From: Schmidtea nova
Taxonomy: Eukaryota
NCBI GenBank assembly: GCA_044892505.1
Contig: CM097882.1
Coordinates: 262,446,001 to 262,510,000, forward strand
Direction of reading: 5' to 3'
DNA length: 64,000 nucleotides
Shown here piece by piece: positions 1-59,572 of the stretch; positions within the stretch are counted from its first letter, which is position 1, and each line of letters begins with the position of its first letter. Made by a program: the position numbers and the translations under genes. Below the pieces are notes generated by a model. The model was not told the origin of the DNA. It made no database searches and saw only the letters and a list, made by a program, of their open reading frames with translations.

Positions 1-31
1 TGCTCGAGTCGGAAACCGTTTCAGCATCGGT

Positions 32-214
32 TTATTTAGACTGTATGCAAGTTGCCCCGATAACCAACTTTGAGTTTGTTTTTTCGAATTCAATACATTT
101 TTCCTTAGCTTTTCGACTCCACCGAAACCTGCTTCGTGTTTTGGGTTGGTCCAAATCTTCTCCATTACAACAAGATTTAAAGTTTAAATTAAGATTAGGC
201 AATGATTGTCCCAT
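32..214 (-). pseudogene. Unknown Polinton ORF (MGQSLP...); likely continued past a premature stop off the window edge
   Basis: ATG lies 3 nt after the stop of the pX-like ORF (TAA ACA ATG); the frame stays open after the TAA up to position 1. No recognisable domain. Confidence 0.35.
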
Positions 215-217
215 TGT

Positions 218-439
218 TTATGACTGTTTTCCTAATAAACCAGCACCTCCCAATAGTGATAATGCTAATGGTAACAATGCTGCAATAAATCCTCCTTGTT
301 GTTTATATATTATTTTACGCATTAATTTTCTATTTTTGGTTTTTACAAGTGATAACAATGGTTTCTTGTGTTTGTTCAAAACCCTTCTATTTGATTCACT
401 TATATTGATTTTACCTCTAACAACTTTAATTAAAATCAT
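218..439 (-). CDS. Adenovirus pX/mu-like basic core protein (Polinton/adintovirus)
   Basis: Lys/Arg-rich N-terminus followed by KQQGG|FIAALLPLALSLLGG, resembling adenoviral pX (MRGG|ILPLLIPLIAAAIG) with an adenain-like xxGG cleavage site. Confidence 0.65.
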   Translation of the reverse strand: MILIKVVRGKINISESNRRVLNKHKKPLLSLVKTKNRKLMRKIIYKQQGGFIAALLPLALSLLGGAGLLGKQS

Positions 440-569
440 TAGTAAATATAAAAACTTTTGAATAATAATAATAATAATAATAATAACTTATAAAAATCTT
501 ATAAAAACTTTAAAAAAATAGAACAATCAAAAACTAAAATTTAAATTACTAACATTTATTAAATAACAT

Positions 570-914
570 TTATGCATATCGTGCACTGTCAATTCTCCAA
601 ATTACAGTTATAACATCTTTTGTATCTACTTTATAACCCTGAATAATTATATTAATGAACCAGTGTTCTTGATCCTTGTATTCGATTGATTGGAACGCAT
701 CATGAAAACGAGTTTTTCTGTTGTTTATGTATATTTTTTCTTTGCAACTTAAATTTTTATTGATTTTTACAAAAACTTTATTTAGTACAACAACATCTTC
801 TTTAGATATATTTGCAGCTAAACTGTCATACAATGATTTTGTTAATTTAACCGGATACAATAATCTAAAAGGTATTTCTTCTACCAAGAAATAAATTTTA
901 TAGTCATAATACAT
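570..914 (-). CDS. Small beta-rich Polinton protein, possibly OB-fold ssDNA-binding
   Basis: Intact 114-aa ORF; C-terminal WFINIIIQGYKVD...VITVIWRI loosely resembles viral SSB OB-fold strands. Weak. Confidence 0.3.
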   Translation of the reverse strand: MYYDYKIYFLVEEIPFRLLYPVKLTKSLYDSLAANISKEDVVVLNKVFVKINKNLSCKEKIYINNRKTRFHDAFQSIEYKDQEHWFINIIIQGYKVDTKDVITVIWRIDSARYA

Positions 915-1562
915 TTGGACTGGTTTGACTTCTGTCTTGATTTTTCTTTTAATTCATTCTTTCTTGTTTTCTTCTCCATTGATTGGGTTGTTAAAAATAT
1001 TATCATAAGTAGGAAAATTTTCTTTGTGTGATTGCATTTTAATAATTGTGACATTATCTAAAAATAGCTTTGTATTTATAGTCATGAGTTTATGTCTTTG
1101 TCCAATGAAAATGAAGCATTCACACTGTGTGTTATGCATGTGTGTATGTTATGCGTGTGTGTATGTTATGCATGTATGTATGTCTTTGTTACATGTTTTT
1201 GTCGCATGTGTATCTTTGTCACATGTATTAAATAACTGATTCATGTGTGCGTATTTTTATGTAGTTAAATGTTTTATTTAATGTCTTTATTTAAAATGTT
1301 TATGTATTTAGTTAATATTTATATTTCTTTATATGTCAAATTATTTTAATAATGAAAACTTCTATATTAAGAAAAACATTACTATTTAAAATAATAAACT
1401 AAAAAACTGAACTTTAATATAAATTTATAAACAAACTAAAATACTAATACTAATACATTTATTAAATGAAAACTAAAAAATGTAATTACAAATTATAACA
1501 GACAAAAACATAAATAATAACAATAAAAATAAGATAAAACATAAAACATAAAATATATTCAA

Positions 1563-2166
1563 TCATTTATGTGGTGATGATTGATTGCAATCTATCATTT
1601 CACGATTGCATTCTTCGTAAACTGGAAGATCATCGGGAATCTTGCGATGACATTCCTCACAATCACGTGATTCTGGCAAAACGCATTGTGACGATTTATC
1701 ACATTGAATCGATTCGTCTGTAGGACCTGAACAATCAGCGGATCCATTGTAATCAGGGGTACTATTGGGCCATATTTCAGGTTCTTCTTCTTCTTTTGAG
1801 GATTCTAATTCGAATCTTTTTAGTTCCGTTCGCAAAATCCATATACGGAACCTCTCAGTTCGGTCAGTACAATGCCCGCATTGATAGGCACACAGGATGT
1901 GCTCGGCCATGAAAGGGATTTCGACATTTAGATTTGCGAGGTGGTCCAGCAATATTTGATTGATGTCTATTCCCGTAATACACTGGATCTTATACGGGAG
2001 TAGTTCCGGTGCTGTGTAAGTCAGCTGCGTCATCAAATTGGGGAATATTTCTTCCAGTTTTCTGTATAATACAGCCATCATCTTTTCTAAAAATGTAAAT
2101 TATAAAAAATGTAAACTAGTAATTTTTTAATTTACCATTTTTGAGATTTGCCGATGTGAGACTCAT
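1563..2166 (-). CDS. Spliced acidic/Cys-rich unknown Polinton protein (exon 2166-2136, intron 2135-2087, exon 2086-1563)
   Basis: A 49-nt GT..AG intron joins MSLTSANLKN-E-K in frame to the 172-aa ORF. Contains a CAYQCGHC motif and an acidic Cys-rich tail; its own TATA/CCAAT promoter lies upstream. Confidence 0.6.
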
Positions 2167-2198: not shown

Positions 2199-2310
2199 TA
2201 TATATACGATAGTAACACACACAACATAGATAAAATAATACACACATAACCAATCAGATTCGAGTACACGTAATATGTCTTTATCTGTGATAAATACATA
2301 CATAGCCAAT
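2199..2310 (-). promoter_or_regulatory. Pol II promoter of the 2166 gene: two CCAAT boxes plus TATA
   Basis: TCTGATTGG twice (CCAAT at 2250-2254 and 2306-2310) and TATATATA at 2199-2206, about 35 nt upstream of the ATG at 2166. Confidence 0.55.
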
Positions 2311-2336: not shown

Positions 2337-2813
2337 TTATTGCAAACATGAGTCACATAATAATAAGAAATCTAAAAAGTCTTTATCCTCAATAATTGAT
2401 TTTATATCGATAATAATACTATCAACTATATTATAACAATCCCTATTTTTTAACCCTAATATCACTACTTTACCGCTTGCAAATATATTAACACACATAG
2501 GATTATATTTTATATATCTCAAAGCTGGAAATATTTCTGGCTCGTAAACACAATCCATTAATTTAGATAAAACATTTAAATTACAAATAAATCCCAAGTC
2601 TACCGTTACAGTAATTGATTGTATTTTTAAATCATAAATCTTTAAGTTTTCTTCACTAATAAATTCCTTGCATCCCATTATTCTAAATCTCCCGGTCTTA
2701 AAAAATATTATCGGGTACTTACCACTTCTATCAATAGTTTGCTATGGTTTCCCCTTTGGGAAATTCAAGTGAGATACATCAGTTTTACCCTTATAATTTA
2801 TGTTGCTAATCAT
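2337..2813 (-). pseudogene. TBP: Compact TATA-binding protein-like gene (158 codons, one in-frame TAG at 2742-2744)
   Basis: Repeat 2: KIQSITVTVDLG...YEPEIFPALRY...VNIFASGKVVILGLK. Upstream in frame, repeat 1: MISNINYKG...PIIFFKTGRFRIMGCK. Intronless. Confidence 0.85.
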
Positions 2814-2840: not shown

Positions 2841-3000
2841 AGAACAGTAATGAAAACTATATTTTATAACAAATATAAACAATATAAAGAAATAAATATA
2901 AAGAAATAAATATATAAATATATTTTAAAACAAATATAAACAATATAAAGAAATAAATATAAAACAAATATAAACAATATAAAGAAATAAACATTTATTT
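2841..3000. repeat. AT-rich degenerate tandem repeat (AAATATAAACAATATAAAGAAAT-like)
   Basis: The unit recurs several times in 2870-2990. Confidence 0.6.
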
Positions 3001-3276
3001 CTAATTTAATCAGAAACTATTAAATTATTTTTTCTGATTAAAAAAAATAAATAAATGAAACAATATACAATACACCCATACCTCGCTTTACGGCCTAGAT
3101 ACGTTCTACGAAACTTGGCCGCAAAGCAAAAAGCCGTATAACGAATCAATTATTCTAATTATCAATGCAAACTTTAAGAATAAATTATCGATTAATTTCT
3201 GTTTAGGCGTTAATGGGTTAAATAAATACTTATTGTATTATATTGTTAAATTATCTACGTTTATTATTTAGAAAAA

Positions 3277-6200
3277 ATGGAAAAAAGAAAATTTAAAGGA
3301 GGCGCTCAAAACGAGAGAGAAAAGCGACAAAAAGTCATGCAAGAAGCTGCTAAAAATACTCTTAAATTAAGTGATATGTTTGCTTCAACTTCTAAGATCA
3401 ATGCATTTGATATTGAAAATTTGAATAAGGATTTGGATTTAAGTTCATCAGTTTCGAGGAATGATGATACTATTATGTGTCCCATTGGCGCAGATAAAGT
3501 TGAAACATCAATTCTCGAAGAAATAACTTCAGTTTCAACTTCCACCCAGGCCAATAATAAAATGATAACACCAACAAACAAAATGTTTAATTTCTTATCA
3601 GATAATTATTTCATAAGGCCAGGAAATCAAAATTATGAAGAGTTTTTTAAAAAACATCCATGCCAACCAACCATTGATGACATTACTAATTTACCTTTTA
3701 AACCAAATTTAATATTTTATAGAGAAGATAAAGTAAATAGGCGTTGGCTATCATATAGTTTGGAAAAAAATGCTCTATTTTGTACCATGTGTTTGGCTTA
3801 CAGTGATATTACAAACGAGAGTTCGTTTGTAAATCGTGGAATGACGGACTGGAGGCACACTTTGCAACGTGTTAAAGAACATGAAAATAGTAAAACTCAT
3901 GAAAATTGTGTAAATTGTCATATGCTCAAATCTAAAGGCAAAGATATTTATAATTTAATGTTCACAAATGAAGGAAGCATACGTCAGAAAAATATTATTG
4001 AACGAAAGCAAGTATTGGAAAGAATTATAGATGTTGTAAAATTAATTGGAAAAAGAGGATTAGCTTTTCGCGCTCACCGATCTGAATCTGTTTCTTCACT
4101 TTCACTTGAAAATAATCAAGAAGACCATGGTAATTTTTTAGAAATAATATTGCTACTCTCTAAATATGACGCTGTTTTAAAATTACATTTATCAAGAGTC
4201 ATCAAAGAAAAGAAGAAAAATAATGAAATATCTGCGGGAACTAAAGGTAGAGGCAGTTTCATTTCATTATTTTCAAAATCTACTATTAACCAGGTAATTT
4301 TGGCCAGTGGAAAATTAATTCAAGATAGCATTTTGTTAGATATACAGGAAGCAGGTATTTTTTCTTTGCAAATTGACACCACACAGGACATAACACAAAA
4401 GGATCAGTGCTCAATTGTTGTCCGATATGTAAAGGGAAATATTTATGAACGTGAAGTAGCTGTTTTAAATTGCAAATCTTCTACAGGGAAAGACATGTGC
4501 AATTTAATTAGTACTTTTATTAAAAACAGTGGATTAAATATTAAAAATTGTATCGGTAATTCGACAGACGGAGCAGCAAACATGCGTGGACAGTATCATG
4601 GCTTCACCAGTTGGTTAAGTAAAGAATCGCCTGGTCAAATTCACGTTTGGTGTTATGCCCACGTATTGAATTTAGTTGTCACAGATGCTACTAGTTCGGT
4701 AATTGAAGGTACTTCTCTCTTTCAAATACTCAACTCGTGTGCCGTATTTCTAAGAGAATCTTATCAACGTATGGATGTTTGGGAAAACACCAGTGTAAAA
4801 ATAAGGTATCAGAGACTTAACGTTATAGGTGAAACAAGATGGTCAGCAAAAGAAACAGCACTTAAAAAAATTTTTGGGCATTATGATAAAAAAGAAACCT
4901 CATTATATGTAGACTTATTGATAACTTTGAATTATTTTGTGTCTAATGCATCTTTTAATGCTCAAATTAGACACACTGCATCAACACTAATGGAGTCTTT
5001 ATTGAAATTTAAAGTTATACTTACAGCGCATACAGTGGCGTAGCAATAGGTTGTGCAGGTTGTGCAAGGCACAAGGGCCCAGGACGAAAAATTAGTAAAT
5101 TTTATACGTTTGAGCATTATAAATTCCCCGATTGTCATCAAACCAAGTATCGCTTGGGCGTTTGTTTTGTTTTTAATTAAGACAGCAACCACAGTTTGAA
5201 CGGTTTATACAGTTAATATTATTAGGAATCTATATTGGATATAGTTGTAAACCACATATGTCACACCCATTCATCTATTAAATTATTTATAATATCCCTT
5301 CAACCCCAACCGGAAACGCTACTATTTCTGTTTTAAAATGCGCAAATTTACTCAGAGAGTTGCTAATCACCTTCCTCCAAGCCTGTCTATGGTTTGGTTC
5401 CTCGGATCACTTCGTTCGACAAATATTTTGTGCGTCCCAAAATCTGCACAAGGGCCCCAGAAATCCTTGGTACGCCACTGAGCGCATATTTATTTAAAAA
5501 TTTTTCTATATTGGACCGTTATCTATATATTTATAAACCAGCAATTTAAATTATTTAACAGCTTATAACATGGTAACTTCCACATTAAATTCTTTAAAAA
5601 AGTTTTCACGTGATTTTAGTAATGTAAAAGAAAAGACAAATTCATTTGCTAAACGTGCGAATACACTACTTGAAGAGGAAAATTGTGAAATAATTGTCGA
5701 AGAAGATTTACCAGAAGAGAGATTTAGACGACGAAAGAGAATGCCCGACGAAATAACCGAAGATCATGAATTTCAAAACCCAATCGAAAAATATAAAATA
5801 ACCACGTTTAACGTAATTATGGATACCACAATAAATACTATAGAAAACCGTTTTAAAAATCATGGAAAATTATATGCAGACATGGCAATATTAGACCCTA
5901 AAAATTTTACCGACAATAAATGTTCAGAAAACAGTTTAGAAGAGCTCAGTAAATTACTAGTAAAATATCATAAAACAGCTACAGGCTCAAATTTAAGGGA
6001 GGAATTAACTGATTTAATGACAAAATGGGACGACTTTAAAATATCTATGCAAGATATATATAACACCGATGAATTAACTGATTCAGATTCAGAAATAATA
6101 AGTGAAGTATGCCTCAAAAACAAAAAGAGTTGCAAAAATTGTATTTATTGTTGCTTTAATTTCTTGGCTAAATATAATTTATATAGCAAAGTATACAGCA

Positions 6201-6442
6201 ATGTTTATTTTGCATTTAAATTTATTTTAACTTTATCTTCGACGCAAGTAGCTTGTGAACGTAGTTTTTCCAAATTAAAAATTATAAAAAATAGACTCAG
6301 ATCTTCCTTGTCACAAAATAATTTGCAGTTTTTGATGCTTATGGCGATAGAGAAGGATATTTTGGTTAATTTAAATAATTATACAATAATAGAGAAAATA
6401 AGAGAAAATGCTCCTGGTATTAGTAAATATTTAAATGGTTAA
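3277..6442 (+). pseudogene. hAT transposase (ZMYM1/DUF4371-like), split by a MITE, with frameshift and stop
   Basis: RRWLSYS..LFCTMC zinc finger, FSLQIDTTQDITQKDQ, STDGAANM, WCYAHVLNL, TRWSAK and C-terminal ACERSFSKLKIIKNRLRS. ORFs 3277-5043 and 5570-6442 rejoin after MITE removal. Confidence 0.92.
5033..5480. mobile_element. Non-autonomous hAT MITE (448 bp)
   Basis: TIR CAGTGGCGTA...TACGCCACTG; perfect 8-bp TSD AGCGCATA at 5025-5032 and 5481-5488. Confidence 0.95.
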
Positions 6443-6584
6443 GAATCTTTTGTTTATTTATTTTTTATTAAGTATGTATTTATATGTAATATTATATTAA
6501 AATGTTATTTTATATTATATTGTTTTTTTTAGGCCGGTCCACTTGGGGTTTCCCGGGCCGCTCAAATTTGCCAGTCCGCTACTG

Positions 6585-6623: not shown

Positions 6624-9600
6624 CAGCTTCGAATGGTTCCAAGTTGAAGTATGAAGTCCCAGCGAATATTGTTTTAGGGCAAAATGGTATTTATTTTTAT
6701 TTTAAATATATTTTTTTTAATTTAAAATTTAAGAAATTCGACAAGTTAAATCAAATTTATTCAGACCGATAGACCAACGTGGACGCATTTTTCCCGCTGA
6801 TATTGATGCCGAATATACCAATGGTAATTTATTAATTAATATTAGATATTTTTATTTTAGAAATTATTTTAGAAAGTAATGACGAATGTAGAGAATCGTT
6901 GAAACAATTTAATAATAATGATGAAGATATGCCAAAGAATTCGGAGGAAATATATAATATTTCGGATGATGATGATGATATTTTGTATGAAAATGAGTCT
7001 GATGAATGTAAGTTTTTATTCTATTTTTATGGATCTCGACGCTTGTTAACTTTTAACGTCGAATCCCATAATATTAATCAAATTGCTGTCACAGAAAAAA
7101 TTTTTGTGCGGTTAAATAAAGAAATTATCAAAATGGGGAACGTAAAAATTCAATTCACCCTTAATATTGAATTTGAAAAAGATGGAGTCTTTAAGAACGA
7201 ATTTTGTCCACTAAAGCTGAGATCTTTTCAGATAATTTCTTAATAGAATGCATTAGGAAATTAAATAATAAAATAGAAAATTTTACACAATGGGATAGCG
7301 GCTGGATTGTTAATAAAATAATGGAAATCCATTTTATTTTGACAAAAATTTCTACCATGAATCGATTATCTGGCCACGGACATTTTGAAACTCCTAACCC
7401 ATTAAAAAATAAAAGGGCAATTATAAATGTAAAAAATTCAGATGATTTATGTTTTATATATAGTGTTTTGGCTATAACAAAATATAATTTAATCGTTAAT
7501 AATCATAGTTCAGCCTCGAGTTATGTACCGTATTTAAATGATTTAGTTTTTGACCCTATAGAAGACTGTCCCATGAAACTATGCAATATCCCTAAATTCG
7601 AAAATAATATCCCTGGCTTAGCCATTAATGTGCTATCTTATAACCCTAAAGTGATTAGAAATAACAATATAGATATAGAAGATGATGATTATGTTCCTCA
7701 TCATTCACACTTGCAAATAATCCATCGCACAAAATTAAATCATTTAAACCCTATTTATCTTTTATTATTAGAAGATAAGGGAATTTTCCATTATACTGCA
7801 GTTATTAATCTGCAAAGGTTAATGACCAGTAGTATAAATAGTACCAATAGGATTCAGTCGATATGGTGTCCCAGATGTTTAAACGGTTTCCGTATTCAGG
7901 AAACCTTTGATAAACATTTTAATTTATATAAAAATAATCAAATTGGTGCAACCCTTTATAGTCTACCAAAAAATAAATATTTAGAATTTAAGGACTATTC
8001 CAAAACCGTAACCCCACCTTTCGTAATTTATGCTGACTTTCAGTCAATTTTACCGGGTGATGACAGGTATCACCAAAAACATTTACCCATATCAGCAGGT
8101 CTATTACTTTTAAATAATTTAAATAATTCAAAATCATATTATGAATTTATAGGTCTTGAATGTGTATTAGAATTTTTAAAGAAAGTGGAGGAAATTGCTG
8201 TTAAAATAGTACTCCCGTATTATGATTTATTCAGAAATACTCCATTAGGGCCTTTATCATTTGCTGAGCAGGAAGCTTTTAAGACTTGTTCAAATTGTTA
8301 TTTTGAAGTATGGTCTGTCTGATTGTTCATCTTGGGAATTAAATATTATTCCGACTACTACAGAGAAATTTATTTCTCTTATAGCTCACATTGATAAACT
8401 TGCTGTTAGGTTTATTGACAGTTATCAATTTGTATCAGAGTCTTTTGATAATGCGGTTAAAACTCTGTCAGTTTTTCCCTTAACATCTTCAGTTTTCACT
8501 GGTTCAATTATGAATTGTAAGGGTATTTTCCCTTTTAATTTTGCTACGAGTCTTGAGGTCCTAGAATCCAATCTTGAATTGCCTCCGATTTGGGCTAAGG
8601 TGTCTGAGGCTGATTATTTACGAGCTCAACAAATTTGGACTGAAAATAATTGTCTCAACTTGTTAGACTATATGAAGGTTTATCTAAAATTGGATGTATT
8701 TCTTCTAGCGGATTACTTTCAACAATTTCGAGCTAAGTCCATTGCTCACAATGGCTTAGATCCCTTAAATTTTTATGGTATTCCCGGTATGAGTTGGGCA
8801 TCTGATTTGGTGACTTTGAAGGAACCCATTGAACTCCTTCAACACATGGAAATGTATAATTTCTATGAGGGAGGAATACGGTGTGGTTTGACGTTCGTCA
8901 ACAAAAAGTATGTAAAGACTGATGATGACACTGAGCTTTTATATATAGATATTAATAATCTATATGGTTGGGCTCTTAGCCAAAATTTTCCTTTTGGTGA
9001 TTTTAGGTGGGTACATAATGATCTTGATAATATCTTGACCGAATGCATGTCGACGGATATTGATGATCTTTCATATGGTTACACTATGGAAGTTGACATT
9101 AATATTCCAGAAAACTTGCATGTGTTTTTGTATGATTTTCCTCTTGCTCCGGAAAAGATGCACCCACCATTCTCGAAAGTTGAGAAGTTAATGCTCACGC
9201 ATTATCCGAAGTATAACTATGTTATACATTGGAGACTTCTCAAGATGTTTGTTTCTCTTGGGGTTCAGGTAGTAAATATCCATAGAGCGATTAGATTTAA
9301 GCAATCGAAAATCTATAAGGCTTACATCGATACGAATACTCAGTTAAGAGCAAACTCTACCAATAAACTCGATAAAAATTATTTTAAACTCCATAACAAT
9401 AGCCTATATGGTAAATCCGTCGAAAATCTGAAAAAACGGATGAATTTGAGATTATGTAATTCATCTGAAAAGATGATTATATATGCTTCAAAGCTGTCTT
9501 TCAGAAAGCCCATCAAAATTGATGACGATCTGATTGCAGCACATCTGAATAAAGATTTAATATGCTTAGATAGACCTAGTTATATCGGTCAAACGGTACT

Positions 9601-10283
9601 AGCTGCGGATGTATCAGCTGCAATATATTGAATTGCAGAAATATAGGGACCTCTTTGATTGTAAGATAGGAATTGTCGCCGGCGACACTGACTCGTTCTT
9701 TCTTGAGGTTAGGCACTGTAAACTTGATGTTCTCTTACCAGCTATGATTTCTGATGATCTTTTAGATACATCAAACTATGATCCCAACCATCCATTATAT
9801 TCACGACGTCTCGACTCTGGGTTAGGGAAATTTAAGGATGAAAGTAAAGGTCATAGATATGAGGAATGGGTTTTCTTGCGTCCTAAATGTTAAAGTTTTC
9901 TTGGTGATACTGAATATAACAAAGCCAAGGGGATTACACTTGATGAGACTGAAATAAAGCATCAATCTTATCTTGACTGCTATCTAAATGACCGGATAAT
10001 AACTGTTCCGCAAACGCGTATAGGAACTAAAAATCAGCAGCTTTATACGATAAAAAATACAAAAATAGCTCTTAGCAATAATGACGACAAGCGCGAATGG
10101 GTGGGGAGAAATGCAAGTCTCGCATTTGGTCATTATTTAGGAGTCAATGCTAGAACCTATTACGATAACATTCCACCGAATCAATTACCGGATGAATTAC
10201 CAAGTCAAATCAATGAGTCAAATAACTATACCGATTATCCGTACGATTTCGGTGAATGGGCTGATCCCTTTGAAAAAACTTAA
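6624..10283 (+). pseudogene. polB: Protein-primed family B DNA polymerase of Polinton, with spliced N-terminus and multiple lesions
   Basis: SGWIVNKI, IINVKNSDDLCFIYSVLA, YADFQS (Exo I), RFIDSYQF, YIDINNLYG (motif A), KLHNNSLYGK (B), GDTDSFF (C), KAKGI, DDKR, LAFGHY. Frameshifts near 7205, 8300 and 9610; TAA at 9891. 5' exons 6624-6686, 6734-6823, 6873 onward. Confidence 0.93.
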
Positions 10284-10649: not shown

Positions 10650-11300
10650 TAATTTTTAACATAGAATAATTTTAAAGTTTTTATATTTGACCTACATAAT
10701 TCTTACAAAGAAAATTATCTAGTTGACCTACTTTTTTCTGACTTAGAAAATTTTTTCATGACCTAATTAATTCTGACAGAAAAAAAGTTCTTTATATTTG
10801 ACCTACTTATTTCTAACAGAAAAATTTTGAAAAAATTAAGTTGACCTACTTAATTTGTTGTCATAGCAACTTAAAATATTTGACCTACTTAATTCTGACA
10901 GAAAAAATTTGAAAATTATATTTGACCTACTTATTTTAACCTTAAATTCACCTTAACAATATTTGACCTACTTATTTTGTCCTTATCGTGACTTTAAATC
11001 GACCTACTTTTTGACCAAGTATTGTCCTTAAAATAACCTTAACCTACTTTATTGTCCTTAACCCATAAATTTGACCTTAAATTCACCTTAATATGGCCTT
11101 AAAACGACCCTGACCTACTTTTTTGACCTTAGTGTCCTCAAAATGACCTTAAGCGAAAAATCTGGCCTTAAAGTGACCTTGGGCGAACATTTTGACCTTA
11201 AATCGACCTACATAAAAAATTTGACCTTAAATTGACTTACATAAAAAAAAATTTAGGGGAGGGTCTTGACCTATATCTGATGCGCTCACATCTTACTACT
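10650..11300. repeat. Polinton terminal repeat region with many TTGACCTAC/TTGACCTT motifs, ending ACTACT
   Basis: More than 20 TGACCT cores in 600 bp; terminal CTTACTACT followed by the candidate 6-bp TSD AATGAT. Confidence 0.75.
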
Positions 11301-19156: not shown

Positions 19157-21104
19157 GCTTCTAGGACATTTACCCCCCGGACAATTCCCCCCGGACGATT
19201 ACCCCCGGACAATTACCCCCGGACAAAAAAACCACCAGGACAATAACCCCCCAGGACAATAACCCCCGGATAATAACCGCTTCTAGGACATTTACCCCCG
19301 GACATTTCATTTGAATTATTTCATTATTCATTATTCTTTTAAATTTAAATAAATAAAATACTCATAACATACTATTTCGAGTGGATAAGTGGTGACTTAG
19401 AGTGATTTTTAAAAAAAAAATAAATATTCAATATTATAGACCATCGATTAAAATTAAATATGGAATTTCTGAAATCAAAAAGAGGAGCGGAAAAAGTAGT
19501 TTTCGAAGGTTATATATATGTGAAGCAGAAAAATTTGGCTAATGGGGTTGTCTCATTTGAATGTGAAAAAAGGCGTAACAAGGCTGAGTGCAAAGCAAAA
19601 ATTAAAGTTCGTGGTGAAGATCTTGTGGGGCGCTTTAATGACCATTCTCATGGTCCAGATCCAGCACAAAAGGAAGTGCTGAAATCAGTTCAAAAAATGA
19701 AAAGATTAGCAGAAGAAACTGAAGAAACGCCTCAGCAGATAATTACGCAATCTGTTTCTACAATAAGTGAAAGTGCAAAAGCAAAGCTGACAACATTACA
19801 TCATTTACGTCGTAATATTAGACGTCAGCGTCAAGTTGTCAACAACCCTTTACCAGTGCCATTGAATGTTGACGCAATCGTAATTCCTGAACGTTATAAA
19901 GTAACAACTGATGGCCAGAATTTTCTTCTGTTTGATTCTGGTACAGATAGTAATAATAAAATGTTGATATTTGGAACAGATAACAATTTAAAACTTTTGG
20001 AATCAACATTTCACTGGTTTATGGATGGAACTTTTAAAACAGCTCCTATGCTTTTTACGCAGCTATATACAGTTCACGCATTAGCTAATGGGCGATGTAT
20101 TCCTTGTGTTTACGCATTACTGCAGAACAAAAGACAAGATACGTATAAAGAACTTTTTCAACAATTAAGTATTCTTAATGTCAACTTGAAGCCCAGAAGC
20201 ATTATGGTTGATTTTGAATTGGCAGTTATAAATAGTTTGAAGACAGTATTTCCTGACAGCCAAATAAAAGGATGTTTCTTTCATCTAAGCCAGAACATCT
20301 ACCGAAAGATTCAAGAAAACGGTCTTCAACAGCGTTACCAGGAAGATTCTGAATTCGCATTAAAAATACGGATGATTCCAGCACTAGCATTTGTCCCTCC
20401 AGAAGATGTAGTCGGCGCTTTTGAAGCATTGGCCGAATTGCTTCCTGCGAACGTTTTACCAATTGCAGATTATTTTGAAGATTTTTATATAGGCAGACCA
20501 CAACGGCGTGGACGACGTCAATCCACTTATAACATAGACATGTGGAATATGCACCAAAGAGCCGAATATGAATTACCAAAAACTAATAATGCAGTGGAAG
20601 GATGGCATAGAAGTTTTCAGTCCAACGTAGGAAGTTACCATCCTACCATTTGGAAATTTATTTCATTTATCCAAAGAGAACAAGCTCTGCAACAATTGCA
20701 CTGTGCTCAAATGCTGGCCGGTCATTCATCCCAGACGTCGAGAAAGAAGTATGCAGATGCAAATATAAGAATACTTTCAATAGTCCGTAGCTACCGTGAT
20801 CGCAGCATTATAGACTATCTACGTGGAATAGCGTATAATTTATCCTTTTAATTAAATTTATATTCAAATTTAATATTTTTTGGTTATTGTTTGTGATTGT
20901 TTTTTTATAAAAATATGTTTTTTTTAACAATTATAATAAATATTTTAATCTATATTTTTTTTATGAGGGGATTGTACGGGGGTTTTTAGCACGGAGGGTT
21001 ATTGTCCTGGGGGGTTATTGTCCTGGGGGGTTTTTTGTCCGGGGGTAATTGTCCGGGGGTAATCGTCCGGGGGGAATTGTCCGGGGGGTAATTGTCCTGT
21101 TACC
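19157..21104 (+). mobile_element. Complete MULE (Mutator-like) DNA transposon
   Basis: Long TIRs built of GGACAATTACCCCC repeats; 8-bp TSD GGTATAAA at 19149-19156 and 21105-21112; intact transposase. Confidence 0.93.
19460..20851 (+). CDS. MULE transposase with N-terminal FLYWCH domain (463 aa, intact)
   Basis: FEGYIY..FECEKRR..C..HSH; WFMDGTFK, IMVDFELA, GCFFHLSQ, TNNAVEGWH. Confidence 0.93.
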   Translation: MEFLKSKRGAEKVVFEGYIYVKQKNLANGVVSFECEKRRNKAECKAKIKVRGEDLVGRFNDHSHGPDPAQKEVLKSVQKMKRLAEETEETPQQIITQSVSTISESAKAKLTTLHHLRRNIRRQRQVVNNPLPVPLNVDAIVIPERYKVTTDGQNFLLFDSGTDSNNKMLIFGTDNNLKLLESTFHWFMDGTFKTAPMLFTQLYTVHALANGRCIPCVYALLQNKRQDTYKELFQQLSILNVNLKPRSIMVDFELAVINSLKTVFPDSQIKGCFFHLSQNIYRKIQENGLQQRYQEDSEFALKIRMIPALAFVPPEDVVGAFEALAELLPANVLPIADYFEDFYIGRPQRRGRRQSTYNIDMWNMHQRAEYELPKTNNAVEGWHRSFQSNVGSYHPTIWKFISFIQREQALQQLHCAQMLAGHSSQTSRKKYADANIRILSIVRSYRDRSIIDYLRGIAYNLSF

Positions 21105-21840: not shown

Positions 21841-24800
21841 TAGGTTAACCATAATAAATATAAAAAGAATATTTCAAAATTGGTGCTTATTATAACATAC
21901 ACAAATAATTTAAATTCTCTGCTAGTATATTAGTTCTTTAAATTATTGTATAGTTGGTTCATTAATTTATTATTATATTTTTTATGATTAAAAATCCCGA
22001 AAAGTGTAAATTTTTACAAAAATATACTGAAGAATATCCTTTCATAAAAAGGGAAAATATGAAACAAGCAATTTGTAAATACTGGAATTACAATTTCACT
22101 ATTAGTCAAAAACACAAATCTTCTGTTTCTTCATCAAGTAAGTGTAAAACATTGACAACTTTTTCGCAAAAAGTGATTATACCGAAGAAGACAAGGTAAT
22201 TGCTATTGAATTATGTTTTGCTTATCACGTTGTAAAACATCACCAGTAATTTAATTCAACTGATTGTATTAATAATTTTATACCAAAACTATTTTTTGAT
22301 TCAAAATCAGCAATGAAATATTCGACAGCCAGAACTAAAACAATAAAACTGGTTACTAGAGTACTTGTACCACATACATTGGATTTATTTTCAGAAAAAT
22401 TGTTAAAGTGCCCATATTATAGCATTAGCACGGATGCTGGTAATCAAAAGGCCCAAAAAATATTTCCATTAATTATTCAGTACTTCAATAAGACTGGAAT
22501 TAATGTTACGTTATTAAAGTTGGGTAATTTAAAAAGTGAATCTTCCGATTTTATTTTAAGCTTTTGCATACAAACTTTAAGCGATAAAAAATTTACATTA
22601 AAAATGTATAGCATTTTGTCTAGATAATACTAATGTTAATTTCGGTGGTAGAGAAAGATTGGGGAAAAACAATGTTTTCACAAAATTAAAAGAACAATTA
22701 GGTAGCAGCATTGAAAGCATAGGATATCTGCTCATATTTTGAACAATACCTTACAAACAGTGTCAGATCAATTATTTTATGATAATGACAAAAATTGATA
22801 TTGATTCAAAATTTTTAATTATTTTGCCATATATACAGTAAGAACCGAATGTTAGAAAGAATTTTGCGATTTTGTTAATGTAGAATACAAAACGCTCCTT
22901 TCGAATTATAACACAAGATGGCTTCACCTTTTGTGGCGAGTTAAAAGAATTTTAAAATTATTCGAAGCGTTGAAATCGTTTTTAATCTGAGGAGAGAGTA
23001 CCAAAGACTTTATTAAACTTTTTTAACAATACCATGGCAGAAGCATAATTTTGGTTTATACGTAGCCAAGCTAGTTCTATACAAACTCAAATTTTGAAAA
23101 TTGAGAGACGCAATAAACCAGTCATGAAAGTTTTAGAAGTTTCTTTACGACTTGCAGAAGAAAAGAGAAATAATAAATTTTTACCAGCAAACGTGAAGGA
23201 ATTTTAAGAAAAAATGAATCTGATCTGACAAGCAAACAAGATATTCATCAATTTTATGAAACACTAGTTGCTTATTTAAGTAAATGCATGACTCCGTTCA
23301 AGAAATATTCAGTATTTTCATGGATACATTTGAAATAAAAACTAAACTGGGAAAAGGTAGAAGAAACTTGTTAATATTTAAGAGAAACAAATGTAATTTT
23401 TAATGATAAGTTCCTATTCAACTAAATTACTATCGTTTAAATGGTAGCCGACGAGTTTATCGAAAACGAGTTTATCGAAAACGAGTTTATCGAAAGCGAG
23501 TTTATCGAAAACGAGTTTATCGAATGATTAATTGATCGAATGACGAGTTTATCGAAAAATATTATTTTTAAGGAATTAAAAACTTTTAAATTTTTTCTTT
23601 ATATCCAGAAACTTAAAATGTGTTTATAATAGCATTTGTTGCAAAAAATTCGTTTTAGGTAAAAATTATTGAAAAAATTAATTTGAAAATGGATTTACAA
23701 TTCTTTATTAGTGAAAAAGGAAAACAGAAATTGTTTTTAAATGGATGTTTATTCTATAAGGACAAAAGTTTTGAAGCCAAAATATATTGGCGATGTGAAA
23801 ATTATAAAACTAAATGCAGTGCTCGTGTAATAACGGAAAACGGCATTTTAGTTAATTTAAAAATATTCACAATCATGTGATAGATGCAGCAAGCGTTCAA
23901 GCTAAAAATGTCATCAGCTGCATTCGCCAGGAAGACCTCATTACTCGTGATGCACCACAATATATTGTGGCTTCATCTTCAGCATTAGTAAGCCGAAGTG
24001 TTGCCGCCAAATTGCCCAGCGTGCCGAATCTTGCGAGAACTATACGGAATGTTAGAGCGAAGAAAAATAAAGGCCCACCGATTCCCAGATCAAGGCTTGA
24101 TATTGTATTCAGTGATGAATATACAAAACAAACAAAAATGAAAAATTTCTTTTATATGATTCTGGAGCTGAGGATGACGACCGCATATTAATTTTTTCAA
24201 CACAAGCAAATTTGGATATTTTACGGCGTTCTCTTCATTGGCACGGTGATGGTACTTTTAAAACCGTTCCTCCATTATTTGAACAATTATATACTATTCA
24301 TGGATTGGAAGATAATAGATCAATTCCATTAATATTTGGTCTCCTCCCAAATAAACGAGAGGAAACATATGTACGTTTTTTGAAAGCAGTAAAAGAATTA
24401 ACTGGTCATTGCAATCCTCAAACTATAATGACGGATTTTGAAGTCGCAATGATCAACGCATTTCAACGAGAATTTCCACTATCCAGGCATTGTGGTTGTT
24501 TTTTTCATTTTAATCAATGTATTTGGCGTAAAATACAATCATCTGGACTAAAACAGCAGTATGAAAATGATCCAGAATACGCATTAAAATTTCGAATGCT
24601 TGCTGCAATGGCATTTGTTCCAACAAATGTTATTATAAACACATTTGAAGTTTTATGTGAAAGTAATATATTTACTGACGATATGCTACCTGTGGTTGAT
24701 TATTTTGAGGACACATGGATTGGACGACCTAATCGTCTCATAGGACGCCGCCCACCGAAATTTAATCACCAATTATGGAATTGCTATGAAGCAGTATTTC

Positions 24801-25700
24801 AGAATTTGCCCAAGACGAACAACAATGGCACAAGGATGGCACAATGGATTTCAGACATTGCTGAACGCTCTTCATCCAGGAATTTGGAAATTCATCGAAC
24901 TATTAAAAAAAGAACAAAGCTTAAATGAACTAAAAATAGAACAATATCTCAGTGTACAGCAACCTCCACAAAAGAAGAAAAAATATCGTGATCTTGAAGC
25001 AAGATTGTTGCGGGTTGTCAATCGTTGGGATGAAAATATTGATATAAATGATCATTTACGATCGATTGCTCACAATCTTTCATATTAAATTTTAAAATTA
25101 TAATATAAATAATATGTACATATATAAATAAAATATTTAAAAGTTTTTAATTTTTTAAGAGACATGCTTTTTTGAGATAAAATCCACAATTCGTAAGTTC
25201 CTTAAAAATAATATTTTTCGATAAACTCGTCATTCGATCAATTAATCATTCGATAAACTCGTTTTCGATAAGCTCGCTTTCGATAAACTCGTTTTCGATA
25301 AACTCGTTTTCGATAAACTTACCGGGAATCGTTTAAATATAGTTTCTGAAGAAAAAAATAAAGGTTGAAACGATTGGGATAGTATGATAACTGCCGATAT
25401 ATGGACCTATTTTTTCTAAAATGGAGACAGAATTTTCCGAGCAATACAATGATATTTTCAAAATATGTGAATATATATTTAGTATTCCTGTACATAATGC
25501 AATGTGGAACGGATATTTTAACTAATGGAAATTCAGTGGACAGACGAACGAAATCGATTATCTTTCAATGTATAGTCAATTTCGACTTCAGTTGCAGCGA
25601 AATATATAACTATGTTCTAAAAAATAAAGTGCTTTCGAAGGATGCAAGATCTAATAGAAAATATAATTAGATTCAATTTTTGTATTAATAGTTAATGGTG
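21841..25700 (+). pseudogene. Decayed hAT (Blackjack-like) transposon interrupted by a MULE
   Basis: TAGGTTAACCATA left end at 21841. Fragments KCKFLQKYTEEYPFIK, YYSISTDAGN and IPVHNA..ERIF..QWTDERNRLS resemble the 30.9-32.8 kb transposase; many stops. Confidence 0.75.
23443..25330 (+). mobile_element. Second MULE with frameshifted FLYWCH-MULE transposase (23683-25088)
   Basis: TIRs of GAGTTTATCGAAAAC repeats; TSD GTTTAAAT at 23435-23442 and 25331-25338; WHGDGTFK, IMTDFEVA, GCFFHFNQ. Confidence 0.9.
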
Positions 25701-28336: not shown

Positions 28337-31300
28337 CATCGGTTCTAGGGGACCGCGACGCAGTTTCGGTGGGACCGCGACGAACTAACGCATATTTATT
28401 TTTTTAAATCATTTAAAAAAAACATCCAAAAATAATTTAATCATTTCTGTTATTAAAAATCAATTCAACATTAGCCCCCTTACGGGGTAAAACTGCGTTT
28501 TGTGTCTCCAATATTTTGCGTGCATGTTGAGGTTGTATGCTAATTTGTGACGTCATTGTTTAAAATTGTAACGTTGTCACCTTGACTCGGTCCAACCTCG
28601 AGGGTTTATATAGCAGGCCTGTCTGCTTAATCTTTGCCTTTAATTGTATTTTCTCCGAGTGAACGACGCATCACATTTAGTATTTTATTTTCTTGTAAAC
28701 AGTTTGTGGTATAATAAACATTAACTTTTGCAGTATAATTTTATAATTTTATAATTTTATAATTTTATTTTATCGATTTTTTTAGATTTAAGATGCCCAC
28801 CAAAAAGAAAATGAGATATGACATTTCATATTTACAATATGGGTTTACTGTAATAAATTCGAAAGGTGAAGAGAAACCACAGTGTGTCTTGTGTTCTGAG
28901 GTGCTGGCACCCTCTTCTCTTAAACCCAGCAAGTTAAAGAGACACTTAGAAACGAAGCATCCCAGCTCAATGACCAAAGATGTCGACTTCTTTAAGCACC
29001 AAGCCGAACGACTGCACAACTCCAGGATTGATGACACAGGAATCTGGTCTGAGAACATTAAGGCTGGTCTGAGGGCGCCCTATGAGGTTTCAAGGAAAAT
29101 AGCTGCGGCCCAAAAACCACACAATATCGGAGAAGAGTTGATATTACCTTGCTGCAAAGATATAATATCAAATGTTCTGGGATGTTCGGAGCTCAGCAAG
29201 CTAAGTTACGTTTGCCTGTCAAACGACACTGTTCAGAGGCGAATAGCAGAAATGTCCGAAAACATTCTGTCGCAAGTGGTGACAAAAATTCAAAACTCAA
29301 CGTTCTCCTTCTTTGCAATCCAACTTGATGAAACGACGGATGTCGCCAACTTAGCACAACTTTGCGTCTACGTACGATATACGTATGATAAACACCTGGA
29401 AGATGAATTTTTGTTCTGTGAAACTCTCAATACCAGAACAACTGCAAAAGAAATCTTTGATAAAGTGGACAGATTCTTTGAAGCGCATGATATCAAATGG
29501 GATAATCTTATTGGCGTGTGTACTGACGGTGCTCCAGCAATGCTTGGTTGTCGTTCTGGGTTTCAAAATTTGGTTAAACAAAAATCCCCAAACATGATTG
29601 GTACACACTGCACTATTCATCGCTTTAATGGTAAAAACCATGCCTGACGAGTTGAAAAATGTTCTCAATCATGTGATTACAGCAGTAAATTTCATAAAAT
29701 CAAATGCACTTAACTCTCGTTTGTTTTCCGAGTTATGCAAAGAAAGTGATTCCGGAATTGAAAAACTCTTGTTGCACTCACACGTGAGGTGGCTTTCCAA
29801 AGGGAAAGTTTTAAAGAGGGTTTTTATACTCCATAAAAAAATTCAGCAATTTTTGAAAGATACCAAACCAGACATGCACACAAAATTCTCCGATGTCCGT
29901 TTTCTTATTTCCTTGTCATTTTTGGTAGACATATTTGAATCCGTGAATTATATCAATCTGGCGCTGCAAGGAAAAGATATCAGTGCTACATTGTCATGAA
30001 AAATTGACGGCTTTCAAAATGAAGCTCGAACTATGGATTACAAAGTTAGAGAATAAGAATTTTGCTCCATTTCCGAAGCTGAATACATATATTGATGAAA
30101 ATGAGCTTGAAGTCGATGCAGATATTCTTGAAATGATGAAACAGCATGTATTCGTTCTTAGCAAAGAAATGTCTCACTATTTTCCTGATCTGCGAGAATT
30201 TGAAAAACACTATCGGTTTATCACTAACCCATTTGAAGTATCCATTAGTGACCTGCCCTCGGACGACAATTTAGTTCAGGAACAATTTATTGATTTAATA
30301 AACGATGAGGGTGCAAAAGATGTTTTCCGTGGAACTTGCTGTAGTGACTTTTGGATTGAAATGGCACTGTCCTATCCTACGGTGACCATACGTACCACAT
30401 TGTGTGGTACAGTACAACATTTTGAACAGGCGTCCAACATTGTCAACTGCACCACATTTTGTACCACATTTAAGTCATTTCATTAATATATCGATTTAAA
30501 AAATTATCAATCATTTTTTGTAAAAGTTTTAAGTTTACTGGGTTGTTTTAGGAGTCGATATATTAATAACAAATATATCGATTTTAATTTATATCGCCGG
30601 AAGGAACGACAAATAAATTTCTTACAAAACCCTGTTTGTCAATTCACATCACTATGACATCTTTGACAGTTTAATATTTTAATTTAAATGCACTTCATAA
30701 GTAGGCTGTGTGGCTGTGTTTTAACGTGAAAAAAAATGTAATTAAAAATTCGGATGCGATTTTTTAAATATCAGCTTTATTATTATTTATTTCAACAATA
30801 AATTGTCAATTTAATTAAATTGCAAGTTAAAAGTAATAATTAATAAATATTTTATTTTCATTAAAAAAAATTCTTGAAGGATAAGCGATAATTATGTCAT
30901 CAAACGTAAATGTAAAGAGAAGAAAAGAAAATGTACTTTTACTGTTGAATTAGCAAAGGAATTTCCATATATCACCAAATGTTATAAAGAAAATGACACC
31001 AAACTAAAATGCGGCAAATGTTATGGAACATTTTCTATTACTTCGGGAAGATACGACATAAATCGACATATGCTATCAGAAAAACATAAATCTTCAGTGG
31101 CTGCAGCAGCTTCATCAAATAATATTAATAATTATATTATTAGAAACGAATATGGTGATAAAGAAAAACAGATAGCCATTGCTGAAGCAGTATTTGCTTT
31201 CCATACTGTTAATCACAACCATAGCTTCAGGTCGATGGATTGCACGTCCAAAATTTTGAGAAAATTATTTGACAACAAGTTTAAGTCTGCCAGAACAAAA

Positions 31301-33430
31301 ACGGAAGCTATAATCAAAAATATATTTGCTCCATATTCAATTGGCTTAATTCAAACAGAAATGGAAAAAACAAATTTTTTTTTCTATATATTCTGATGCT
31401 TCCAATCACAAAGATATTAAATTTTTCCCAACATTAATTCGTTATTTTGATTGGAAAGAAGGAATTAAAATCAGAATGCTAGATTTTTTATCATTACGAG
31501 GTGAAACTGCTGAAATGATAGCAAATTCAATCATTGATATATTAAAAAAATTTAATTTATCTTCAAAATTGGCAGCTTATTGTGCAGACAATGCAAACAC
31601 CAATTTCGGAGGATTAAACCGAAAAGATGGTAAAAATGTTTTTACAATTTTGAATAAAAATTTAAGCCAATCAATCGTAGGAATAGGCTGTGCTGCCCAT
31701 ATTGCACATAATGCAATTCAAACTGCAGCTGATTTACTCCCAATTGATTTAGAAACTATAATCATTAAAATTTATGGATATTTTCATATCTATACTGTAC
31801 GAGTAGCTTTACTGGAAGAATTTTGTGATGAAGCAGGTATTGAATATAAAAAAATAGTTGGTTTTTGTAAAACTCGTTGGTTATCTCTAATGCCAGCGAT
31901 AGAAAGAATCCTAAAGCTGTACCAACCATTGAAAAGCTATTTTTTATCAATAGAAAAATGTCCACAGGTAATCGAAACCTTTTTTAAAAATGATTCATCC
32001 GAATTGTGGTTGTTATTTGTTCACAATCAAGCAGCACTTTTTGAAAATACAATAAAATGTATGGAAGGAAGTTCTAAAAATGTTAATGAAATTTCTGAAA
32101 GTATTGATAATTTAAAATATAAATGTTATGAAAGAGCTAATGAAACATTTCTTCCATTAGCAGTCAAATGTTGTTTAAAAAAACTAGTCAACGACGGCTC
32201 TATTAATGAAACTTGGTTTCTATCGCACGTAAAAAATTTTTATCAGAACTGTTTTCAATATTTAGAGAAGTGGTCGTGTCAGTTTACTAACATTAAAACT
32301 TTTAAATGGATTTTACTTAAAACTTGCCCACAATGGCAAGAATTACAAAGTTCATATGAATTTGTTTCGAAAAATTTTCCAGATATTGAAATTAATGACA
32401 ACGTATTATTTGATGAAATCAGTTATATTAAAAAATATGTAACTGAAACGAAAATAAATTATTGGACTGAAAATAATATTACAACCGATATGAGATGGGT
32501 AGAGATGTTTCAGCATTTTGAGACTGAACACGTACCTTTTAAAAACGTTTTACAATTGGCAGAATATTCATTGTGTTTGCCACGTACAAATGCTGCCACA
32601 GAAAGAGTTTTCTCTTTAGTTAATAATATCTGGACTTCTGAAAAAACACAATTATCAGTAGAAACGTTAAAAGCAATACTAATTGTGAAATGTAATTTTT
32701 CTAATGATTGTGATAGTTTTTATGGCAATATTATAAAAAACGATGAGATTTTGAAAAAGATAAATTCTGCCGAAAAATATCTGTGAATTGCAATGTTGTT
32801 AAACATGTTATTTTATTTATTTTTGATATTTAATTATATTATTTTGAATTTAAAATACTGTACTGTAACAGTATAACATTTAATTTATGTTATTTTCTAC
32901 TTCTACTTAATTGAATGAATTGTTGACAATTACTTAATTTTTATTAAATTTAAATAAATTTGTGGTACAATAAATATGTGTCATAAATTAATATTTTTTT
33001 TTATTTTTGGAAAAACCACCCCTCTGTACCACATTCACTATCAAGAAATCTGGTCACCGTATCCTATCCTGATGTTGCAAAGATGGCTCTAAAAGTCCTC
33101 ATTCCATTTGCAACCACCTATGAGTGTGAGTCGGCTTTTTCTACACTACTTACAATTAAAACAAAAGCAAGAAATAGATTATGCGCAACAAATGATATGC
33201 GAGTTGCACTGGCCAAGACAAAGCCAAACATAAAAGCTCTAGTTCTGGAAAAACGACTGCATCCGTCGCATTAAAATTGTTATTTAACTTTTACGATGTA
33301 ATATTTTCTCAATATATATGTTTTATTTGCTATACCTTTTTTATTTTTTATTATTAGGGGTCCGCAAGCTATCTAACAATTTTTAAAGGGACCGCCTCGC
33401 AGAAAATTTCAAAGAATTTGAGAACCGCTG
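28337..33430 (+). mobile_element. hAT Buster/Charlie (ZBED5/ZBED8-like) transposon; transposase 28793-33274 frameshifted and interrupted
   Basis: KPQCVLCSEVL..KPSKLKRHLETKH, AIQLDETTD, CTDGAPAM, HVRWLSKG, PFATTYECESAFS; right end TTGAGAACCGCTG at 33430. Confidence 0.9.
30378..33061 (+). mobile_element. hAT (Blackjack-like) nested in the Buster element; transposase about 30893-32786 with frameshifts
   Basis: TIR TACGGTGACCA/TGGTCACCGTA; 8-bp TSD TCCTATCC (30370-30377, 33062-33069); removal restores MALSYPDVAKMALK. Motifs CADNANTNFGG, GCAAH, TRWLSL, TNAATERVFS. Confidence 0.95.
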
Positions 33431-43559: not shown

Positions 43560-45150
43560 AAATTTAATATCCAATGGACTGAAAAATATTTAGTGTCAGA
43601 GTTATTTGGTAATATAATGTGTCTTATATGTAATGATAAGATTAGCGTATGCAAGGAATACAATATCAAACGTCATTATATTTTGAAACATGAGTCAGAA
43701 TATAAGACGTATAATGAAGAAAAACGAAAATTAAAGAATTGACAACGGTAATTAGGCCACAACAAGTCAGTCTTCAAAAACATGTTGTTAAAACTGGAAC
43801 ATGTACAAAAGTTAGTTACCTTATAGTTGGGAAATTAGCTAAGAAAGGAAACCCACTTGTTGATGGAGAATTAGTAAAATAATGTCTTGTTATCGCTTTT
43901 AATGAGTACTGTCCAGACAAAGTGAATTTAGTAAAGGAAACATGTCTATCACATCAGACAATTGGCAGAAGAATTGATGACTTGGGTGATAATATTGAAG
44001 GCACGCTGAGGGATAAATTGTCTGCATGCGTTCTTTACAGTTTAGCGTTGGATGAAAGTACTGACCAAAGTGATACTGCCAAATTAGTTATTTTCATCAG
44101 AGGAATCGATATAAATTTCAATATTGTTGAAGAAATGTTGGACTTATGTCACATGAAAGGCACAACAACAGACAGGGACATTTTTGAGTTGGTTAATTTT
44201 TCATTAGATAAATTCAATGTTAAAAGGAAACACATTGATTCGATTACAACTGATGGTGCTCCTGTCCTGACTGGTAAACACAATGGTTTTATTACTTTAT
44301 TCTGTCTGTTGATCATGAGATTCTCAGTTACCATTGCTTGATACATAAACAACAATTATGTGCTCAAAAGCTAAATATGGAACATTTGATGACTGATCTT
44401 ATCAAGGCTGTTAATTTCATCAGATCACGGGGTTTAAATCATCGTGAATTTAAAGCATTCTTGAAGGAAGTTGGCATGGTATATTTTTCAAAAGTTAGAT
44501 GGCTCAGTAAAGCAGCAACCTTAAAAAGATTTCAGTTATTGTTGCCTGAAATAAAAGGGTTCTTGGAAGAAAAGATGCAATATGTGGATTTTTTTAGAAA
44601 ATGAAGAATGGTTGAATGATTTATCTTTCTTTGTAGACATTACTGAAGTATTAGCTGAACTTAATTTGCATTTACAAGGAAAGGACCAGTTGTGTTCCTC
44701 AATATTTGAGCGGATAACTAGTTTCACAATGAAATTGGAACTTTTTATAGCACAGCTAAATCTGGTAAAATTGTACACTTCGTAGTCTATCTGAAAGAGA
44801 AAAAAATTTCTGTAAACTATGAAAAATATACTAAATTGTGTGAAGATTTCCTTGAAGAGTTTACAATTAGATTTTCCGAATTTAGAAAGATTGAAAACGA
44901 GTTAAAATTGTTTAACCCTTTCGCGGACAATGACGTGTATACACGTCATACTACTGCGTTCTGTTGGGACATGCGTCCGCGAAAGGGTTAATGATCCATT
45001 TTCATTTGAATATGATAAACCACCAGAGGAGTATCAACTTGAACTAATTGAGCTGCAAAGTCAAAAGGGTTTAAAAACTTTCCATAGAGAGAACACACTT
45101 CCTTTATTTTATAAGAAATGGGGTCGCTAGGCAAAATCTTGGGGTCGCGA
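43560..45150 (+). pseudogene. hAT Charlie-type (GTF2IRD2/EPM2AIP1-like) transposase relic
   Basis: QWTEKYLV..CLICNDKISVCKEYNIKRHY, SLALDESTDQSDTAKL, ITTDGAP, VRWLSK, LNLHLQGKD; multiple stops; carries a piggyBac MITE. Confidence 0.88.
44916..44987. mobile_element. 72-bp piggyBac MITE, copy 1
   Basis: TTAA TSD on both sides; 13-bp TIR CCCTTTCGCGGAC; removal restores KLFNDPFSF in the host transposase. Confidence 0.95.
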
Positions 45151-59497: not shown

Positions 59498-59572
59498 CTC
59501 TTTTATACATCGGTCAATACAGCTTGACACTTTTTATTTTACAAAATTTATTTACACTTGGTTTTCGCACAT

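Follow-up and report, generated by a model that had tools for sequence, protein, structure and literature searches.

A miniature TATA-binding protein gene of Polinton elements and a variant TATA word upstream of their structural genes

The Polinton copy in the window

The window is a stretch of 64,000 nucleotides from the genome of Schmidtea nova (G000). The mini-TBP gene lies at 2337..2813 on the minus strand, a detail absent from the earlier note. Reading from 2813 to 2337 confirms the 158 codons, the single in-frame TAG (codon 24, 2742-2744) and the lack of introns described there, and the motifs YEPEIFP, IFASGK and IFFKTGR are all found in the translation, which is followed by a stop. The match to the Pfam TBP family is above the cut-off (E 5.5e-15), and the score for the TBP superfamily PF00352 is 55-57 bits against a cut-off of 22.9. 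The window copy differs from 29 open copies by 10-14 nucleotides. Relative to one open copy it carries 3 synonymous and 8 non-synonymous changes, and the dN/dS within its own subfamily is 0.61, a value based on 11 changes. The window gene is a broken, decayed copy of a fixed gene in an abundant Polinton family.

Two further reading frames lie on the minus strand. The Cys-rich ORF173 (1563..2081) is situated 3' of TBP in the G000 subfamilies and was not found among 52 metagenome loci; ORF155 (570..1037) is open in the window only from 953. A putative host-type promoter of ORF173 occupies 2199..2310 on the same strand and is comprised of the TATA sequence TATATATA at 2199-2206 and two CCAAT boxes at 2250-2254 and 2306-2310. 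With the two boxes beside it, this TATA resembles a common promoter of host type that would serve the next gene. It had been suggested as the probe for a binding test of the mini-TBP, which is probably the wrong choice; TATAAACA, described below, is the likelier site.

On the other side of the gene, four ATAAACA words on the plus strand (at 2875, 2936, 2970 and 2987; 2875..2993) are what remains of the ATPase promoter, multiplied in tandem. The ATPase gene itself is deleted in the window, and the likeness to the reference element stops at 2902. The place of the block from the ATPase to ORF148 is taken by a hAT-type transposon (3250..6584, plus) with DUF4371 and zf-C17orf113 domains; a terminal repeat-like end is present at 6576-6584, and the other end was not found. 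It is followed by a frameshifted pPolB gene of a diverged subfamily (6836..10283, plus; PF03175, E 1.6e-19), with 82-85% nucleotide identity to the reference copies, and by a terminal inverted repeat (10721..11300, no strand assigned) that ends in CTTACTACT at 11300. This pPolB gene is not the normal neighbour of TBP; the usual one, the ATPase, is missing.

At the left edge, the 3' part of ORF180 is found at 218-447 on the minus strand, within a segment (1..447) where the integrase region starts, with ATAAACA at 221 and 306. The element runs on to the left of the window through the integrase, penton, ORF121, MCP, protease, ORF148 and pPolB genes, and its left terminus is 11,177 nt beyond the first base of the window. 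Compared with this left-hand body, the TBP block (461-2902) runs in the opposite direction, and the part from the ATPase to ORF148 is gone on the right. Since the outer termini have no matching 6-bp duplication, the window copy is probably rearranged or chimeric.

The rest of the window contains ordinary repeats, among them Mutator-like or hAT-like transposase frames recognised by eye at 19424-20851, 23659-25088, 28763-32786 and 43883-44604. The region 56000-64000 is gene-dense and strongly strand-skewed, includes coiled-coil frames, and may represent another viral or mobile element. The frame at 60746-62125 (minus) is an intronless RING/zf-TRAF/MATH gene of 459 aa.

The element family, its relatives and its ancestry

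The best 150 of 19,044 first-look candidates in the genome were scored, a selection that favours intact copies and is not a census; 149 of them are open, the stop occurring in the window copy only, and they are 95-100% identical. The 29 open copies are on average 0.87 nt apart, with 190 of 406 pairs identical. This near-identity, set beside the distance of the window copy, indicates a recent burst and makes the window copy an older, decaying one.

The TBP gene is oriented head-to-head with the packaging ATPase gene, about 95 bp away, in all 16 other copies that were compared with their flanks, and an ATPase gene lies at most 1.5 kb from TBP in 29 of 30 loci, the exception being the window. One strand of the element encodes, in order, pPolB, ORF148, protease, major capsid, ORF121, ORF348, integrase, ORF180 and ATPase; the other encodes TBP, ORF173 and ORF155. 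ORF348 is probably the penton, judging by its position and size. Copy C, of 17,394 bp, ends in AGTAGT...ACTACT and is flanked on both sides by the duplicated GATGAT. It has the terminal inverted repeats with AG...CT ends and the 6-bp target duplication, which the rearranged window copy lacks. The Polinton hallmarks, pPolB (PF03175; one open frame of 1279 aa) and the rve integrase (PF00665), are present. The packaging ATPase matches Pox_A32 (E 1.1e-6), the capsid protein has a DJR-like match that is below the cut-off (E 7e-4), and the protease has HW and CGQHC motifs and no in-frame ATG. These genes, the terminal repeats and the 6-bp duplication are shared with the Polintons, Mavericks and adintoviruses, which have a double-jelly-roll capsid, as described in the available text of PMC8502044. 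The integrase gene of G000 is split by a 43-nt GT-AG intron and the 5' end of the protease gene is intron-like, both of which point to transcription by nuclear Pol II. No TFIIB-like gene was recognised in the 17-kb elements. The model of ORF155 (pLDDT 95) finds phage SSBs or SSB-like phage proteins in the top nine Foldseek rows, the best of which has a probability of 0.97 but a weak E value of 0.034. ORF155 is likely to be a single-stranded-DNA-binding protein with a predicted fold like that of phage Enc34 or T7 gp2.5.

Several derivatives of the element were noticed. Loci L047+L048, L049+L050, L063 and L067 are palindromic, with two inverted TBP blocks flanking a deleted centre, and several inverted TBP pairs of this type occur among the genomic matches listed. 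In the mosaic copies L057, L137, L147 and L149, the TBP, ATPase and integrase genes are almost identical to those of one subfamily and the penton and pPolB genes share no more than 50-65%, a pattern suggestive of an exchange of modules. Two penton-like genes are present in some elements, including L073 and L155. Accessory frames recognised by eye in related elements are ubiquitin-conjugating-enzyme-like (L073:222-719), dual-specificity-phosphatase-like (L081:4008-4319) and leucine-rich-repeat-like (L091:1918-3330).

The linkage extends beyond close copies. When a distant ATPase was used as the query, 12 of the 13 loci had a TBP gene within the 10 kb examined; these 13 loci and seven picked by TBP comprise several subfamilies of 58-88% identity. 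A protein search yielded 39 relatives among 52 candidates, the best 150 rows of a profile search are nearly all of the asymmetric type, including longer forms with first-repeat helices, and the database relatives number well over 100 at the 50% cluster level. A Polinton core gene is present in 23 of 52 metagenome loci and any element gene in 36; all 11 contigs of at least 4 kb carry an element gene, and the 16 loci that carry none are 1.0-3.1 kb long. Gene orders vary in the metagenomes, TBP being found by the ATPase, behind capsid-protease-ORF148, by pPolB or by the penton, and an SSB-like gene adjoins it in 18 of the 52 loci. The "Polinton-borne" character claimed earlier, and with it the expectation that relatives elsewhere adjoin Polinton genes, is borne out in both the genome and the metagenomes. 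A scan of viral contigs gave no relative of TBP or of the capsid protein; three distant ATPase loci were matched.

The mini-TBP family forms one clade on a long stem (support 100/100) in trees of 98 of the 195 rows and of 35 rows, which contain one archaeal-type outgroup and no large-virus or herpesvirus TBPs. The window sequence and the four host TBP-family genes as a clade, the arrangement expected of a recent retrocopy, are rejected (p-AU 1.9e-44), and an old split that makes the family as a whole the sister of the host genes is allowed (p 0.28, 0.36). As judged from codon comparisons, the family evolves under purifying selection, dN/dS being 0.07-0.19 in 12 of 15 subfamily pairs, with three saturated, and near the values for the capsid and ATPase genes. 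The host TBP-family genes of G000 are separate, and some have introns. At least four such loci were seen (L126-L130); two are divergent, and one lacks both first-repeat Phe.

The predicted protein and the promoter word

The product of an open genomic copy, modelled by AlphaFold2 with 35 relatives, reaches a pLDDT of 92. The first repeat of the model consists of four strands with no helix in residues 1-72, and its second repeat is normal. The model aligns with residues 66-240 of yeast TBP (1ytb) over 143 residues (Z 12.3, rmsd 3.0; Foldseek E about 1e-8), a span that requires both repeats; across cellular and archaeal TBPs (PF00352; 1ytb, 2z8u, 7egb_P) the saddle is matched over 139-143 residues with Z 12-13. 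The two-repeat architecture read from the letters in the earlier note is upheld by this prediction.

Residues were counted in 167 of 179 family rows, after exclusion of 12 rows in which the N69 column is empty; P0118, treated as family in the trees, is outside the 167. Yeast TBP numbers, which we take as column labels, are used throughout. The members were gathered with profiles and patterns that hold the invariant residues, so conservation is inflated and the rates are upper bounds. Like cellular TBP, the family keeps P191, N69 (159 of 167), three of the four intercalating Phe (F116 in 165, F190 in 166 and F207 in 166) and the glutamates of the TFIIB stirrup (E188 in 165, E186 in 153). Unlike cellular TBP, it has no conserved Phe in the variable F99 column and is shorter by about 28 residues in the first repeat, where the stretch bounded by the N69 and Q158 columns counts 61 residues instead of 89-90. 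The loss of the first stirrup Phe, the retention of the other three and of the TFIIB stirrup, and the shortening of repeat 1 are all as the earlier note had them. Both repeat-1 helices are absent from the model, and the basic helix 2 of the N-terminal lobe falls in a gap of the alignment. The DNA face carries residues that are not found in cellular TBPs: V122 is replaced by R in 165 of the 167 proteins, T124 by M in 167, L205 by N in 166, N159 by S or T in 166 and V161 by T or S in 165. All five columns are listed as contacting DNA in the ORF24/TBP table of PMC12529657. In the 105 short forms, V71 is replaced by N in 99 and I194 by R in 97.

When regions upstream of the structural genes were aligned, the word TATAAACA surfaced. 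It was scored as ATAAAC at -60..-16 from the ATG (wider form (T)ATAAAC(A)), with start codons assigned by homology, after upstream regions had been de-duplicated at 70% similarity (ATPase from 33 to 16, MCP from 22 to 7, penton from 25 to 6, ORF148 from 9 to 5 and TBP from 63 to 33). The word precedes 15 of 16 ATPase genes, against 0.9 expected by shuffling, and in 13 it lies at -31..-36. It is found before 5 of 7 MCP and 4 of 5 ORF148 genes, more rarely before penton (2 of 6) and ORF121 (1 of 5); in the scored window of the G000 protease there is none. It precedes 2 of 33 TBP genes (Fisher p 2e-9) and none of seven ORF173 genes. TBP genes have another type of promoter: 15 of 33 have a canonical TATA, where 5.9 are expected, and 9 of 33 have CCAAT, where 3.3 are expected. 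In one element the structural strand carries 12 copies of the word, where shuffled sequence gives 4.5 +- 2.1. The word that precedes the capsid gene falls within ORF121, and 7 of 7 elements read it there in frame as ATA AAC, a count uncorrected for shared ancestry; this goes contrary to codon usage, as in the capsid genes of the same elements ATA makes up 23-55% of Ile codons and AAC 18-38% of Asn codons. A variant TATA word confined to structural genes is what a late-promoter factor calls for, the late timing being presumed.

The TBP saddle is pseudo-symmetric, and its two repeats meet opposite halves of the TATA box. In the available part of PMC12529657, where the DNA-contact positions of ORF24 and TBP are tabulated, P191 of the second repeat touches the first TATA base. 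The P191 contact and the pseudo-symmetry together would make the remodelled first repeat face the 3' half of the word.

A second Polinton family of the window genome, found by Pfam, has no TBP by HMM and serves as a control. ATAAAC is present in the scored window before none of its 22 genes. The family still holds nine ATAAACA in 10.5 kb (4.6 +- 2.2 expected), and four of these words, in two pairs, precede two non-capsid genes by about 50-70 nt. Three distant Polinton-like contigs have no TBP and no word before their ATPases; one of them has ATAAACC about 65 nt before a probable capsid gene. No close TBP-less relative of the TBP-bearing lineage was found, and with controls from one TBP-less family and three distant contigs, the gene and the motif could share the descent of one lineage. 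In the TBP-less family (L157 at G000:C1:252.71 Mb, L160, L163, L166), AT-rich TATAAAA-like runs stand directly before the ATG, and one copy is nested inside a TBP-family element.

A putative late-promoter factor

The mini-TBP is probably the element's own late-promoter factor. By binding TATAAACA upstream of the genes for packaging, capsid and maturation, it would bring in TFIIB and Pol II of the host. The "element-encoded basal factor" proposed earlier holds as a putative role, given a fixed Polinton gene that keeps three Phe and the TFIIB glutamates. Host TBP would transcribe the TBP, SSB and ORF173 genes early from their TATA/CCAAT promoters. The mini-TBP would then bind TATAAACA; its intact second repeat would contact the 5' TATA half, and the remodelled first repeat would contact the 3' half, in which the word departs from the host consensus. 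The kept glutamates would dock host TFIIB, and the loss of helix 2 would free the protein from Mot1/BTAF1, TAF1, TFIIA and Brf1, the binders of that surface. If so, the mini-TBP should prefer TATAAACA over TATAAAAG.

Viral proteins of the TBP fold are known to direct late transcription. According to the available portions of PMC12529657 and PMC12197705, KSHV ORF24, HCMV UL87 and EBV BcRF1 act on late genes through a TATTWAA word. ORF24 resembles the mini-TBP in its polar substitutions at the DNA-face positions V122, T124, V161 and L205 (PMC12529657, in the same portion). It differs in being a large multidomain protein of a six-member complex, which has four Phe, no TFIIB glutamates and direct binding to Pol II, whereas the mini-TBP is a stand-alone protein of 145-160 residues with the TFIIB glutamates and without a Pol II-binding N-terminal domain or partner late factors. 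The herpesvirus late TBP mimics may serve as a working analogy; there is no sign of homology beyond the fold, and the mini-TBP is not one of them. In the accessible text of Ravarani 2020 (PMC7221094), two glutamates bind TFIIB and the basic patch of N-lobe helix 2 binds TFIIA, TAF1, Brf1 and Mot1; the known viral TBPs have diverged at both surfaces, and evasion of Mot1/BTAF1 is proposed. The TBPs of large DNA viruses have diverged TFIIB signatures and often a TFIIB of their own (PMC7221094, same text; BFVD matches), whereas in the mini-TBP the TFIIB glutamates are kept and the helix 2 surface is deleted.

A Polinton TBP is already in print as a map label: "TBP" stands in the legend of Fig. 5 of Starrett 2021 (PMC8502044), and in the available text the gene is not discussed; the one supplement at hand has no TBP matches. 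The promoter word and its placement before particular genes go beyond the earlier note. Beyond that label, no description of a Polinton TBP or promoter word was met with in the open literature, that is, outside subscription papers, Repbase and figures. "Polinton" is absent from the text and readable supplements of the TBP survey PMC7221094, and TBP is not mentioned in the accessible texts of a coral polintovirus paper or a giant-transposon review. For a polintovirus subgroup, the available part of PMC11131425 reports a VLTF3 transcription factor, not TBP.

It is unlikely that the mini-TBP is instead a general booster of all element promoters, or a tether of the genome to the Pol II machinery, with TATAAACA serving host TBP as a weak TATA or being recognised by another host factor, for instance one of the forkhead type. 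The TFIIB glutamates and the three Phe are host-like, as such a booster would have them, and ATAAACA matches the forkhead consensus RTAAAYA. Cellular TBP has been crystallised on a TATA variant with C at -25 (PDB 1qn3) and tolerates it, so the host could read the word. Against a booster stand the promoter type of the TBP genes, the TATA-like distance of the word and the invariant non-host residues on the DNA face. The composition of the word argues in the same direction: of the 30 NTAAAYA words that precede structural genes, 23 are ATAAACA and none is GTAAACA, and T precedes the word in 22 of 26.

The dominant-negative decoy that the earlier note had offered as a second option is not favoured. 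The kept TFIIB stirrup, together with the loss of one Phe and of the regulator surface, would suit a protein that sequesters TFIIB or blocks host TATA boxes in a host shut-off, but such a protein has no need of invariant new DNA-contact residues or of a co-occurring promoter word, and 150 or more open genomic copies of it would be costly. Because it is the surface turned to the DNA that holds the conserved novelties, and the structural genes have a matching motif in front of them, a decoy is quite improbable. There is only a slim chance that the word is read by the late machinery of a helper virus or marks replication or packaging, the TBP fold then acting on origins or terminal repeats; shared promoter motifs recur in virophage papers and an SSB-like gene is a frequent neighbour, but the spliceosomal introns, the fixed distance to the ATG and the kept glutamates speak against it. 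A recent retrocopy of a host TBP gene carried as passive cargo, for which the missing introns and the broken window copy might be cited, can practically be dismissed in view of the rejected grouping with host genes, the purifying selection and the many relatives.

Whether the late-promoter factor forms part of a two-stage programme with a one-gene switch in a widespread Polinton lineage, in which the smallest stand-alone TBP variant reads TATAAACA, is blind to host regulators and uses host TFIIB, is about evenly balanced. If it does, the gene and its word would make up an altered-specificity TBP-promoter pair of natural origin, a counterpart of the late system of herpesviruses, and the mini-TBP would be the first regulator to be defined for capsid expression in Polintons of the animal type. 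A single factor and a word of eight letters make the switching of Polinton capsid genes testable, and that switching bears on whether Polintons make particles. For TBP itself the family amounts to a natural experiment, a predicted saddle without first-repeat helices and with three Phe that is still kept under selection, and with its helix-keeping intermediates it suggests which residues set TATA specificity.

Four longer members (L114, L122, P0140 and P0148) keep the first-repeat helices and share the R/M/N substitutions. L114 adjoins an ATPase gene with ATAAACA at -36 and appears as an intermediate stage in the reduction of repeat 1.
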